A stretch of DNA of 25,479 nucleotides from a virus. Taxonomy: Duplodnaviria > Heunggongvirae > Uroviricota > Caudoviricetes. The notes under the pieces are model-generated. The model saw only the letters and a program-made list of their open reading frames with translations. It did not search any database and was not told the DNA's origin. The DNA lies in the IMG/VR virus record IMGVR_UViG_2531839473_000011, positions 1 to 25,479 of that record; one strand, given 5' to 3'. How positions within the stretch are numbered: the first letter of the stretch is position 1; each line of letters begins with the position of its first letter. Below are positions 1,014 through 8,617 of the stretch, one piece after another. A program made the translations under genes and the position numbers.

Positions 1014-1821
1014 GTTAGCTGATTACAGGCCTCAACTTGAGGTCGTGGAGCATCGCGTGGCAGATACCGAAGATGGTTTCATGCGCGTTGCTAACGAGAT
1101 TACCGACAGTCTGCTGATGGCTGATTTAACCGTCCGGCAGTTGAAGGTGATGCTCGCTATCATGCGCAAGACATACGGATTCAATAAGCCGATGGATCGA
1201 CTCACAAACACGCAGATAGCAGCCATGACAGGTATTCATCACACTCATGTTTGCGCTGCCAAGCGCCAGCTTATCGAGCGTAAATTCCTCATTGCTGATG
1301 GCGTGAAAATCGGAGTGAACAAGGTGGTTTCTCAGTGGATTAGCCAGGGCAGCTTAACATTAGCTAAAACAGCTAATAAAACATTAGCCAAGTCGGCTAA
1401 TGGGTATAAGCCAAGTCAGCTAAACACAAAAGACAATATACAAAAGACAATAAATACAAATACCCCCTTACCCCCTAACGGGGGCGGCGATGGGCAGGTT
1501 AAACCTGAACGTCGCAAGGCAGAACGAATCGACTACGAATCCTTCCTCAACGCCTACAACACCGAAGTCGGTGACAGGCTTCCACACGCTGTTGCGGTCA
1601 ACGAGAAACGCAAACGCCGCCTGAAGAAAATCATCCCGCAACTGAAAACGCCAAACGTGGACGGTTTCAGAGCGTATGTCAGGGCGTTTGTGCATCAGGC
1701 CAAGCCGTTTTACTTCGGAGACAACGACACGGGCTGGACGGCAGATTTTGATTACCTGCTGAGGGAAGATTCGTTAACGGGAGTACGGGAAGGGAAGTTT
1801 GCAGACAGGGGGATTGCATGA
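1000..1821 (+). CDS. O: Replication initiation protein, lambda O-like
   Basis: 273 aa. The N-terminal region ([34 protein letters not shown]) resembles the lambda O DNA-binding domain. AGGAG RBS upstream. An iteron array lies inside the gene, and a helicase gene follows. Confidence 0.8.
1340..1465. other. Candidate origin of replication: four ~18-bp iterons plus an AT-rich tract inside the O gene
   Basis: Iterons TTAGCCAGGGCAGCTTAA (1340), TTAGCTAAAACAGCTAAT (1360), TTAGCCAAGTCGGCTAAT (1384) and TAAGCCAAGTCAGCTAAA (1407), each with internal dyad symmetry and spaced 20-24 bp apart, followed by an A-rich stretch 1425-1465. This matches the lambdoid ori layout inside O. Confidence 0.6.
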
Positions 1822-3194
1822 AACAGGATATCGAAGCGAGCGTTATCGGTGGCTTGCTGATTGGTGGATTAACACCAACTGCCAGTGACGTTCTGGCAAC
1901 GCTGGAGCCGGAAGCGTTTTCAATTCCGCTCTACCGGAAAGCCTTCGAGGTTATCCGCAAGCAGGCGAGAAACAGAAACCTAATCGACGCGCTGATGGTT
2001 GCCGAGGCGTGCGGAGAGGAGCATTTCACGTCAATCCTGATGACCAGCAAAAACTGCCCGAGTGCCGCAAACCTGAAGGGATATGCCGGAATGGTCGCGG
2101 ATAACTATCACCGCCGTCTGGTGCTGGAAATCATGGATGAAATGCGTGAACCAATTCAGAGCGGAACCATCGACGCATCGAGTCAGGCGATGGATGAACT
2201 TGTAAAGCGTCTTTCAGCCATCAGAAAGCCACGTGACGAGGTTAAACCTGTACGGTTAGGGGAAATCATCACCGACTACACTGACACGCTTGACAGGCGT
2301 CTGAGGAACGGAGAAGAGTCCGATACCCTGAAGACCGGAATCGAAGAACTTGATGCCATCACCGGAGGGATGAACGCGGAAGACCTTGTGATAATCGCTG
2401 CTCGTCCTGGTATGGGGAAAACCGAACTGGCGCTGAAGATTGCCGAAGGCGTTGCAAGCCGCGTTATTCCTGGTTCTGACGTCCGGCGCGGAGTGTTGAT
2501 TTTCTCGATGGAAATGAGCGCATTGCAGATTGCAGAGCGAAGCATTGCCAACGCCGGGAGGATGCCGGTTAGCGTGCTGCGAAATCCTGCTTCGATGGAT
2601 GACGAAGGCTGGGCGCGCGTTGCTAACGGCATGAGTCAGCTTGCAGATTTGGATGTATGGGTAGTCGATGCCTCGCGGTTATCGGTCGAAGAAATACGCT
2701 CAATCGCAGAACGGCACAAACAGGAAAATCCAAACCTGTCACTCATCATGGTGGATTATCTTGGCCTGATTGAGAAGCCGAAAGCAGACCGCAACGACCT
2801 CGCAATTGCTCACATCTCCGGAAGCCTGAAGGCGATGGCGAAAGACCTGAAAACGCCAGTTATCTCCCTAAGTCAGCTTTCACGCGATGTTGAGAAGCGA
2901 CCAAACAAACGCCCGACAAACGCAGATTTGCGTGATTCAGGAAGCATTGAACAGGACGCAGACTCAATCATCATGCTCTATCGGGAAGCGGTATATGACG
3001 AGAACAGTAGCGCCGCGCCATTTGCTGAAATCATCGTGACGAAAAACCGTTTTGGCTCACTTGGTACGGTTTACCAGCGGTTCTGCAACGGACACTTTGT
3101 TGCATGTGACCAGGATGAAGCCAGACAGATTTGCACAGCATCAAATGCACCTGCTGCGCGTGGCAGACGATATGCACAAGGGGCTGACGTATGA
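1818..3194 (+). CDS. DnaB-family replicative DNA helicase (P22 gene 12-type)
   Basis: 458 aa with a Walker A motif ([10 protein letters not shown]) and the DnaB C-terminal RecA-like domain pattern. The start overlaps the O stop (ATGA). Confidence 0.85.
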
Positions 3195-3219: not shown

Positions 3220-3252
3220 AGGCCTGCTGGTAATCGCAGGCCTTTTTATTTG
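3220..3252 (+). terminator. Rho-independent terminator after the replication genes (position of lambda tR2)
   Basis: Perfect 8-bp stem AGGCCTGC (3220-3227) / GCAGGCCT (3236-3243) with an 8-nt loop, followed by TTTTTATTT. Confidence 0.6.
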
Positions 3253-6103: not shown

Positions 6104-6288
6104 ACGCCACAATTCAAACGATACCAGAGCTTCTTATCCAGACACGAGGCAATCAGACCGAAGTGGCGAGGATGCTTTCCTGTGCAAGAGGAACAGTGCT
6201 CAAGTACAACCGAGACAGAAAAGGCGAGCGTCACGTAATAGTTAACGGCGTCCTGATGGTCAAACAGGGCAAGAGGGGAAGACGATGA
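6100..6288 (+). CDS. ninH: NinH-like protein
   Basis: 62 aa; ...GNQTEVARMLSCARGTVLKY...IVNGVLMV resembles lambda NinH. Confidence 0.7.
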   Translation: MNATIQTIPELLIQTRGNQTEVARMLSCARGTVLKYNRDRKGERHVIVNGVLMVKQGKRGRR

Positions 6289-6803
6289 GCATAAGAGAAC
6301 TAAACCTCACCAAAGAACAGCACGATTGGCTGAATGGCTGGCTTGAACTGTGGGGCGCATGGGTTTATTCAGGCCGCCTGGAAAAGCGCATGAGCAGCGT
6401 AATAGCGAAGTTCATGGAGAGCGTAGAGCCGGGAAGAGTTATGACAAGGCCAATGTGTAATGATGATGATGGAATGTTGATTTCTCAGGTCGTCGATTCC
6501 GTCATGTACATTGACAAGAAAGCCTTTGGCATCCTCCTCAGCTACTACGCTCATGGTTCATCTAAGCGAGCAATTGCATCCTACTATCACGCGACTGCAA
6601 AGCCACGCAAGATGTGTGGGCGTGGTGGTGAGGGATGGAGAAAACCTTCACTGGCAACCTGTAGAAATGAAATTGACGACATCCTGAAAGCGTCGTTATT
6701 TGTTTTGTACCAACCAATGCAAAATGCTTTCAAAATGCGTAAACGTGTTGAGAAAGTTAAGCATGTTGCTGTTAAAAGCCTTGACATGCAATTAGCCATT
6801 TAG
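6285..6803 (+). CDS. Q: Late-gene antiterminator Q (P22 gene 23 / QuuD-type)
   Basis: 172 aa with LELWGAWVYSG and RPMCNDDDGMLI motifs characteristic of this Q family. It sits directly upstream of the late promoter and lysis genes. Confidence 0.8.
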   Translation: MSIRELNLTKEQHDWLNGWLELWGAWVYSGRLEKRMSSVIAKFMESVEPGRVMTRPMCNDDDGMLISQVVDSVMYIDKKAFGILLSYYAHGSSKRAIASYYHATAKPRKMCGRGGEGWRKPSLATCRNEIDDILKASLFVLYQPMQNAFKMRKRVEKVKHVAVKSLDMQLAI

Positions 6804-6810
6804 CCATAAT
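6781..6810 (+). promoter_or_regulatory. Candidate late promoter (PR'-like) embedded in the 3' end of Q
   Basis: TTGACA (6781-6786), 18-bp spacer, CATAAT (6805-6810). Position is appropriate for a Q-dependent late promoter. Sequence inspection only. Confidence 0.4.
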
Positions 6811-6820
6811 TAGAGGGTAA

Positions 6821-6864
6821 GCTGCCGTTAGTGACTCTTAAGTTGCAACGGTGGCTTTTTTGTT
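6821..6864 (+). terminator. Rho-independent terminator just downstream of the late promoter (tR'-like)
   Basis: 9-bp stem GCTGCCGTT (6821-6829) / AACGGTGGC (6847-6855) with two G-U pairs, then TTTTTTGTTTG. Confidence 0.5.
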
Positions 6865-7399
6865 TGCACAACAGGTAAGAGCATTGAACCCGCAGACCTC
6901 GCGGAATTGGTGAAAGGTGCCGCGCAGTACTCTTATCGTTGTGGTGAATACGCAGGCTGATGCGTTAATCAGGTGAACGAGACACCCGCCGGTCCGTGAT
7001 ATGGCACACCGTGCCGGTCATATCTGCCGCGGTTAGGTTTACGAGGATTTCGTAAAGCTGGTCTAGGGTTAAGCCGTGAAAGCGGAGGAAGTAAAACGAG
7101 GCGTCGGTACACGCCTATCGTCATTAAGTCGGAGTTCAGCACCGACCGCCACAACCCAAACTGAGCCGTAGCCACTGGCTGTCCTGAATTCATCAGTGAT
7201 AGTTATGCTGCGGCCTTCTACACATGACCTTCGTGAAAGCGGGTGGCAGGAGGTTGCGCTAACAACCTCATGCCGTTTTGCCCGTGCATATCGGTCACGA
7301 ACAAATCTGATTACTAAACACAGTAGCCTGGATTTGTTCTATCAGTAATCGACCTTATTCCTAATTAAATAGAGCAAATCCCCTTATTGGGGGTAAGAC

Positions 7400-7723
7400 A
7401 TGAAGATGCCAGAAAAACATGACCTGTTAGCCGCCATTCTCGCGGCAAAGGAACAAGGCATCGGGGCAATCCTTGCGTTTGCAATGGCGTACCTTCGCGG
7501 CAGATATAATGGCGGTGCGTTTACAAAAACAGTAATCGACGCAACGATGTGCGCCATTATCGCCTGGTTCATTCGTGACCTTCTCGACTTCGCCGGACTA
7601 AGTAGCAATCTCGCTTATATAACGAGCGTGTTCATCGGCTACATCGGTACTGACTCGATAGGTTCGCTTATCAAACGCTTCGCTGCTAAAAAAGCCGGAG
7701 TAGAAGATGGTGGAAATCAATAA
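7400..7723 (+). CDS. S: Holin, lambda S-type (class I) with dual-start motif
   Basis: 107 aa, essentially identical to lambda S as I recall it, including the Met1-Lys2-Met3 dual start (ATGAAGATG). The upstream leader also matches the lambda late leader. Confidence 0.92.
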
Positions 7724-8183
7724 TCAACGTAAGGCGTTCCTCGATATGCTGGCGTGGTCAGAGGGAACTGATAACGGACGACAGAAAACCAGAAATCATG
7801 GTTATGACGTCATTGTAGGCGGAGAGCTATTCACTGATTACTCAGATCACCCTCGCAAACTTGTCACGCTAAACCCAAAACTCAAATCAACAGCCGCCGG
7901 ACGTTACCAGCTTCTTTCCCGTTGGTGGGATGCCTACCGCAAGCAGCTTGGCCTGAAAGACTTCTCTCCGAAAAGCCAGGACGCTGTGGCACTGCAACAG
8001 ATTAAAGAGCGTGGCGCTTTACCGATGATTGACCGCGGTGATATTCGTCAGGCAATCGACCGTTGCAGTAATATCTGGGCTTCACTGCCTGGCGCTGGTT
8101 ATGGTCAGTTCGAGCATAAGGCTGACAGCCTGATTGCAAAATTCAAAGAAGCAGGCGGAACGGTCAGAGAGATTGAGGTATGA
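7707..8183 (+). CDS. R: Endolysin, lambda R-type lytic transglycosylase
   Basis: 158 aa, near-identical to lambda R. The start overlaps the end of S as in lambda. Confidence 0.92.
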
Positions 8184-8617
8184 GCAGAGTAACCGCGATT
8201 ATCTCCGCTCTGGTTATCTGCATCATCGTCTGCCTGTCATGGGCTGTTAATCATTACCGTGATAACGCAATCGCCTACAAAGAGCAGCGCGATAAAGCCA
8301 CGTACATCATCGCTGACATGCAGAAGCGTCAACGTGATGTAGCAGAACTCGACGCCAGATACACAAAGGAGCTTGCTGATGCTAACGCGACTATCGAAAG
8401 TCTCCGTGCTGATGTTTCTGCTGGTCGTAAGCGCCTGCAAGTCGCCGCCACCTGTGCAAAGTCAACGACCGGAGCCAGCAGCATGGGCGATGGAGAAAGC
8501 CCAAGACTTACAGCAGATGCTGAACTCAATTATTACCGTCTCCGAAGTGGAATCGACAGGATAACCGCGCAGGTTAACTACCTGCAGGAGTACATCAGGA
8601 CGCAATGCCTGAAATGA
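8180..8617 (+). CDS. Rz: Rz inner-membrane spanin (i-spanin)
   Basis: 145 aa with an N-terminal transmembrane segment and a coiled-coil periplasmic domain. Position and size match lambda Rz. Confidence 0.85.
8373..8564 (+). CDS. Rz1: Rz1 outer-membrane lipoprotein spanin, embedded in Rz in the +1 frame
   Basis: ORF fully inside Rz in another frame, with a signal-like stretch, lipobox-like VSAC and a proline-rich mature region ([14 protein letters not shown]). The true start may be an internal Met. Confidence 0.6.

Follow-up and report, generated by a model that had tools for sequence, protein, structure and literature searches.

The DNA analyzed here, called the window throughout, is the whole 25,479-nt stretch (positions 1 to 25,479) of the Caudoviricetes record IMGVR_UViG_2531839473_000011, and overall it resembles P22-like E. 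coli phages, for example, HZ41, IME10, and CUS-3. At the locus described below, the gene for a late antiterminator, Q, is preceded by neighbors of a lambdoid nin region (YbcO, RusA, and NinH) and followed by lambda-type S, R, and Rz genes. The 3' end of Q overlaps a promoter, pR', and a hairpin followed by a T-run lies just beyond it. The elements in and around this arrangement, together with two further hairpin sites of the window, are as follows:

6285 to 6803, + strand: Q gene, encoding a 172-aa late antiterminator of the phage 21 family (from the ORF list and from Pfam and PDB matches)
6781 to 6786, + strand: -35 hexamer TTGACA of pR', at -36 to -31 (from a consensus scan; the homologous promoter is annotated in Sf6 and HK75)
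6790 to 6805, + strand: predicted Q-binding element (QBE), two direct 8-bp repeats, AATTAGCC and ATTTAGCC (from the sequence and the phage 21 register)
6805 to 6810, + strand: -10 hexamer CATAAT, at -12 to -7 (from a consensus scan)
6817, + strand: predicted transcription start, +1, a G (from homology; 7 nt past the -10 hexamer)
6818 to 6823, + strand: putative sigma-dependent pause element, the -10-like hexamer TAAGCT at +2 to +7 (identical to phage 21)
6819 to 6865, + strand: intrinsic terminator tR', an interrupted 17-bp hairpin at 6819 to 6857, then T6-G-T3 at 6856 to 6865 (from RNA folding and homology)
6817 to 6865, + strand: predicted constitutive leader RNA made without Q, ~40 to 49 nt (from the start and the terminator)
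7400 to 7723, + strand: dual-start holin S of lambda type, the first of the late genes (PF05106 holin, E = 2.4e-30)
~3220 to 3248, + strand: hairpin plus T-run, -15.4 kcal/mol, just after a 458-aa ORF at 1818 to 3194
~745 to 771, - strand: hairpin plus T-run, -16.3 kcal/mol

The positions of these elements in the window, their homology, fold, and conservation are results of the present analysis. A Pfam scan of the window Q returned Phage_antitermQ (PF06530, E = 1.3e-25) and a weak DUF1133 match only, with the lambda-type antiterminator families absent. Against the 21Q structures 6jnx and 6p18, the match reaches E ~1e-91 (2.3e-91 for 6jnx) and aligns residues 1 to 162, of which the N-terminal 102 are almost identical to 21Q and residues 103 to 162 have diverged. 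The Q ORF of the window is 10 codons longer than that of phage 21, whose stop codon lies upstream of the -35 hexamer, so that in the window the ORF runs through the -35 hexamer and the first Q-binding repeat. The -35 hexamer falls within codons 166 and 167, and since the ORF ends with TAG at 6801 to 6803, the stop codon lies inside the promoter spacer, 2 nt before the -10 hexamer; the initial annotation had thus rightly described the promoter as overlapping the last codons of Q. The C terminus encoded here (6774 to 6803) reads ...KHVA-VKSLDMQLAI, 10 residues beyond the length of 21Q. Because the common repeat variant TTATCC lies within the ORF, it changes the protein as well, giving ...QLSI instead of ...QLAI. 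In the phage 21 loading complex, the C-terminal residues of 21Q touch RNA polymerase (bioRxiv 10.1101/651190). By analogy, the 10-residue extension of the window Q may matter, placed as it is at the site of this contact, and we count its location against reading the locus as a 21-type switch.

Downstream, the late operon comprises the genes for holin, endolysin, and Rz, followed by long + strand ORFs up to the end of the window, and in the phage records that match best, the part aligned with this region is annotated with terminase and portal genes. All ORFs of at least 100 aa that fit a late operon lie downstream of the promoter-terminator cassette and on the same strand. The lysis cassette is of lambda type and spans 7400 to 8617, with a dual-start holin (MKM; S107/S105), an R of 158 aa, and an Rz of 145 aa. 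An ORF embedded in the +1 frame at 8373 to 8564, with a lipobox-like LVVSAC motif, is probably Rz1.

Through the control region itself, the window has the order ...AAAGCC TTGACA TGCAATTAGCCATTTAGC CATAAT TAGAGG G TAAGCT GCCGTTAGTGACTCTTAAGTTGCAACGGTGGC TTTTTT GTTTG.... The near-consensus promoter claimed previously, TTGACA and CATAAT separated by 18 bp, is present at the expected place with 11 of 12 matches to the sigma-70 consensus, and it is the sole site with at least 10 of 12 matches on either strand of the whole 25.5-kb window. As a chance level, dinucleotide shuffles of the window gave 0.25 sites with at least 11 of 12 matches per shuffle, with one or more such sites in 20% of shuffles. 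The TTGACA hexamer is invariant in alignments with phage 21, Sf6, L, JEP4, SE1, and HK629. The 18-bp spacer is not optimal, which is a second point counted against a 21-type switch.

The transcription start can be predicted at G6817 by homology to phage 21. In the phage 21 record (AJ237660), the 5' end of the annotated 'aRNA' is the base just 5' of TAAGCT, and the numbering used in the structural work, with C:G pairs at -21 and -13 and a bubble from +3 to +15 in the 21Q-engaged complex, independently gives the same +1 base (PMC6606751). The window and phage 21 align without an indel from the second Q-binding repeat to TAAGCT, and hence the start would fall on G6817, the -10 hexamer on -12 to -7, TAAGCT on +2 to +7, the hairpin on +3 to +41, and the T-run on +40 to +45. 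The phage L genome paper puts its predicted start very close to the counterpart of 6819, at most 2 nt from 6817 (PMC8022706).

A terminator had also been proposed almost immediately downstream of the promoter, and a hairpin at 6819 to 6857 (-20.2 kcal/mol) is indeed found there, followed by the T-run. With the RNA folded from 6817, this hairpin has a z-score of -4.8, and 0 of 200 shuffles fold as well; its G+C-rich lower stem pairs 6821 to 6829 with 6847 to 6855, and the fold is the same as that of the phage 21 leader. Given the homology-based start, the hairpin begins at +3, or at +5 for its G+C-rich part, which is 2 to 4 nt after the start and not the ~10 nt initially proposed. The T-run is one T shorter than that of phage 21 (T6 versus T7), and this too is counted against a 21-type switch. 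A fold-based scan found only three sites in the whole window at which a strong hairpin is joined to a T-run; tR' is one of them, and the other two (~3220 to 3248 on the + strand and ~745 to 771 on the - strand) are probably intrinsic terminators of the early region. The built-in terminator scan missed tR' because of its loop limit of 3 to 8 nt. As a rough estimate, the chance expectation for an 11/12 promoter with such a terminator at most 60 nt downstream on the same strand is below 1e-3.

The hairpin directly follows the Q stop codon, where an operon-end terminator is expected, and its main role could therefore be to end the early-right (nin-Q) transcript, with the promoter match incidental and the real late promoter further downstream; the GenBank record of HK629 places a 'putative late promoter' ~160 bp further on. 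However, between 6811 and 8500 there is no other + strand promoter-like site with at least 9 of 12 matches, the 11/12 match at pR' is the best of the whole window, and the -35 hexamer, the repeats, and the -10 hexamer are in exact register with phage 21 elements defined by structure and mutation. HK629 itself has the same promoter, which is followed by a pause-like hexamer and a terminator of its own. We rejected the candidate pR' further downstream, raised by the HK629 annotation, on the promoter scan, the register, and the elements of HK629, and the 'putative pR'' of that record, which lies elsewhere, is probably misplaced. An incidental promoter match beside an early terminator is thus extremely improbable, and the promoter and hairpin are treated below as parts of one late control unit.

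The characterized counterpart of this unit is that of phage 21, with Q21, pR'21, the QBE, a -10-like pause element, and tR'21, which was the subject of structural work in 2019 (Yin et al. 2019; Shi et al. 2019, PMC6606751). The two phages share the Q family and the order and register of the elements (-35, repeats, -10, start, and pause hexamer at +2 to +7), and their DNA agrees at every base from +2 up to +41, where the terminator stem ends, whereas differences occur in the -10 hexamer, in the spacer, and in the last part of the Q gene. The spacer is 18 bp in the window and 17 bp in phage 21, the window has CATAAT where phage 21 has the weaker AACACT at the same position, and the start base is G in the window and A in phage 21. 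The phage 21 record (AJ237660) has a promoter after Q at the homologous place, together with an 'aRNA' feature of 50 nt. By comparison with this feature, the ~40 to 49 nt predicted for the window leader agrees with the 45 to 50 nt initially suggested for the transcript made without antitermination, and the two leaders would both be ~50 nt long, the phage 21 length being based on the GenBank 'aRNA' feature and on secondary citations (PMC7547250). Short constitutive pR' RNAs are known for phages 21, 82, phi80, and P22 (PMC7547250).

The Q, pR', 6S RNA, and tR' of lambda follow a shared logic: the promoter after Q is constitutive, Q binds between its -35 and -10 hexamers, the polymerase makes a sigma-dependent pause close to the promoter, and Q overrides an intrinsic terminator. 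The lambda leader is ~194 nt long, compared with a predicted ~45 nt in the window, and lambda Q belongs to a Pfam family different from the PF06530 of the window Q. With a Q that is not lambda-like and a leader that would not be ~190 nt, the window does not carry a lambda-type module. The T-run begins 39 nt past the predicted start, and the contrast drawn initially with the lambda 6S RNA holds to this extent, but the compactness is not new, as it is a known trait of the 21-type module. Guo, Kainz, and Roberts reportedly described the late regulatory region of phage 21, including its compact leader, in 1991. Between 21Q and lambda Q there is no obvious sequence homology (Shi et al., PMC6606751), and an additional -35-like element is required in lambda and absent from the late promoters of other lambdoid phages (PMC6606751). 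P22 gp23, considered as a 21-type Q, was dropped on the statement of the phage L paper that it is of lambda type (PMC8022706); a record named 'SE1 (P22virus)' does carry a 21-type Q.

Within the block shared with phage 21, TAAGCT is not only the putative pause element but also the start of the 5' arm of the terminator stem. Such double duty, as a pause signal in DNA and as a stem arm in RNA, would explain an invariant block amid variable flanks. The 87 copies of the 21-type leader comprise 11 distinct sequences, in which most substitutions keep the pairing (G-U to A-U or G-C; U-A to U-G); the exceptions are two single-substituted and two multi-substituted variants that lose one or two inner pairs. 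The divergent leaders of related loci still fold, at -18.9 to -26 kcal/mol.

Conservation of the leader could also derive partly from an activity of the ~45-nt RNA itself in lysogens, for instance, as an Hfq- or ProQ-bound regulator or decoy like StxS. In lysogens of Stx phages, StxS too originates as a short RNA made constitutively from pR' and ended at the tR' that closely follows, so that a pR'-tR' leader can be an Hfq-binding sRNA, and such leaders have been proposed as a general source of sRNAs (PMC7547250). The 3' end of the window leader is made up of a hairpin and a U-run, which is the common 3' module for Hfq; the leader is 100% conserved between phages with diverging flanks, in which the Q-binding sites, -10 elements, and downstream genes differ; and the module is present in ~14% of complete E. 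coli genomes. However, whereas the StxS precursor is cut at ~+173 to give a 74-nt Hfq-binding sRNA with an exposed seed (PMC7547250), the window leader, at ~45 nt, would be almost wholly one hairpin, with unpaired bases confined to the first 2 nt, a loop of 4 nt, and a single bulge. Locked in this hairpin, with no single-stranded stretch longer than 4 nt, it offers no obvious seed, and we therefore regard an sRNA role as very unlikely. In addition, the double duty of TAAGCT explains the conservation well enough, and an Rfam scan of 6500 to 7500 at E <= 1 gave no match, so the leader falls in no curated RNA family. Finally, a quarter of the related loci have the same Q and promoter followed by an unrelated leader, most of them keeping the 21-type leader ~700 bp downstream.

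These loci with a different leader right after the -10 hexamer number 23 of ~91 related loci (L003, which is HK629 1021 to 1780; L011; and ~20 IMG/VR loci), and they keep the same Q, -35 hexamer, TTAGCC/TTATCC repeats, and CATAAT. Their alternative leader reads ATTCAC-A(+1)-TATGCT(+2 to +7), followed by the terminator GCCCACCTCCTGTGGGC-T6, and is ~58 nt long; the site of the change corresponds to window 6811 to 6817. In 18 of the 23, the alternative leader belongs to an insert of ~698 bp that also has an HNH endonuclease gene and that fills precisely the interval from the -10 hexamer to the retained 21-type TAAGCT/tR', and this insert supplies its own -10-like hexamer at the same register.

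The spacing of these elements was surveyed with a register scan of fetched phage records and viral contigs, whose template consisted of TTGAC[A/T], a 17- to 18-bp spacer, a -10 hexamer with A2 and T6, and a T-A-N-N-N-T hexamer at +2 to +7. The scan returned 103 distinct loci in 15 sequence combinations, all with a purine start and two repeats at fixed positions. Among these loci, which were selected by the required promoter and hexamer spacing, the hexamer at +2 to +7 is TAAGCT, TAAGTT, TATGCT, or TAGATT.

The predicted Q-binding element of the window has core hexamers TTAGCC at 6792 to 6797 and 6800 to 6805, an 8-bp spacing that puts the fifth base of the first at -21 and that of the second at -13. 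In phage 21, the QBE is a pair of TGAGCA hexamers that lie as direct repeats between the -35 and -10 hexamers, the C:G pairs standing at -21 and -13 (PMC6606751). The window repeats are therefore in the exact phage 21 register, with a sequence that differs at repeat positions 2 and 6 (2 of 6 positions). Residues 95 and 128 of 21Q contact bases (PMC6606751); they are H and R in 21Q and R and N in the window Q. Since both the repeats and these two base-contacting residues differ from phage 21, binding of the window Q to the TTAGCC repeats is a prediction. A TTAGCC-type repeat variant with changed Q contacts is already published for phage L, whose genome paper gives the variant repeats AATTATCC/ATTTAGCC as the likely QBE and makes the general point of a different QBE and a different specificity (PMC8022706). 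The first repeat is TTAGCC in the window and TTATCC in L, HK75, and CUS-3.

A table of related loci extends this comparison. At residue 95, R pairs with C at repeat position 6, and H or Y with A; at residue 128, R pairs with G at repeat position 2, and N or S with T. By lineage (loci L001 to L171), R95/N128 goes with TTAGCC, and H or Y95 together with R128 goes with TGAGCA, while the one lineage that has both R95 and R128 (L114) has TGAGCC repeats. This pattern suggests that Q residue 128 may read repeat position 2 and residue 95 position 6; with a handful of independent lineages, the co-variation is suggestive only.

Close relatives of the window carry the same arrangement. The Q-to-S segment (6285 to 7400) is 96.7 to 98.3% identical to CUS-3, HK75, and HK629 over the aligning parts and ~97% identical to Sf6, and over 141 bp of the late control region the identity to HK75 and CUS-3 is 97 to 98%. 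The Sf6 record annotates a 'P R'' ("nearly identical to phage 21 late promoter") that corresponds to window 6781 to 6810, a 'qut site' at 6808 to 6856, and a 't R'' at 6820 to 6864. The HK75 record has pR', qut, and tR' at the same places, and the phage L record has a terminator at the place of tR'. Directly after tR', phage 21, Sf6, and L carry two tRNA genes, whereas the window, CUS-3, and HK75 have a ~290-bp non-tRNA segment there. ARAGORN found no tRNA in the whole window, so counterparts of these two genes are missing from it; the segment at 6866 to 7160 (~290 bp) gave no tRNA (ARAGORN), no Rfam match, and no convincing ORF. A ~290-bp non-tRNA segment likewise follows tR' in CUS-3, HK75, and JEP4, and the CUS-3 record labels the conserved blocks on either side (~6805 to 6868 and ~7160 to 7400) as mosaic 'boundary sequences' bsq4 and bsq3.

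Of 5426 complete E. coli genomes, 752 have a 101-bp module from this region (357 at a coverage of at least 80%), and the module is also present in 94 phage records, with the arrangement conserved in >80 phage records. Many of the E. coli copies are prophages, which would fit a nonfunctional cassette left as the decayed remnant of a defective prophage. However, the Q gene of the window is full length, every element of the cassette is intact and matches its counterpart in the viable phages Sf6, HK75, CUS-3, and L exactly or almost exactly, and the downstream lysis and morphogenesis ORFs are intact, making such decay highly doubtful, as improbable in our estimate as an incidental promoter match.

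By analogy with phage 21, then, the region from 6781 to 6865 is very probably the cassette that controls the late genes in a (pro)phage, P22-like or lambdoid, with a phage-21-type Q. The initial interpretation as the late promoter of a Q-utilization module, and of promoter and terminator as one late unit, is supported, with a Q of the 21Q family, DNA from +2 to +41 identical to phage 21, and pR', qut, and tR' annotated in both Sf6 and HK75 all pointing to the same assignment.

For the start site, pausing, termination, and Q action at the window cassette, phage 21 serves as the model. Sigma-70 RNA polymerase would initiate constitutively at about G6817 from pR', and sigma region 2 would then re-read the non-template TAAGCT at +2 to +7, causing a promoter-proximal pause at roughly +14 to +20; such a -10-like element in the initially transcribed region has been described for the phage 21 system (PMC6606751; bioRxiv 10.1101/651190). 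If Q is absent, the polymerase would leave the pause, transcribe the hairpin (+3 to +41), and free an RNA of ~40 to 49 nt at the U-run. If Q is present, two protomers would bind the TTAGCC/TTAGCC direct repeats between -35 and -10 and dock on the paused polymerase, with one protomer forming a ring inside the RNA-exit channel and the nascent RNA passing through this ring. In the phage 21 complexes, this ring or nozzle in the RNA-exit channel blocks hairpin formation (PMC6606751; bioRxiv 10.1101/651190). With the terminator hairpin blocked in the same way, the polymerase would pass tR' and the terminators beyond it and go on to transcribe the lysis and virion genes, which occupy the + strand from 7400 to the end of the window. 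A template with 21PR' and 21tR' gave ~10-fold Q-dependent read-through in vitro in the presence of GreB, a result shown for phage 21 only (PMC6606751).

The feature is a textbook compact 21-type unit of pR', QBE, pause element, and tR', real but ordinary and already known. Its value is one of annotation: the late operon of the window would be under a standard 21-type Q switch, and single-base coordinates can be given for its promoter, its start, the Q-binding repeats, the pause element, and the terminator. About antitermination itself it teaches nothing new. A small gain comes from comparing loci: at least three combinations of Q and QBE alleles have the pause-plus-terminator unit in common as a fixed block, and Q residues 95 and 128 track repeat positions 6 and 2.
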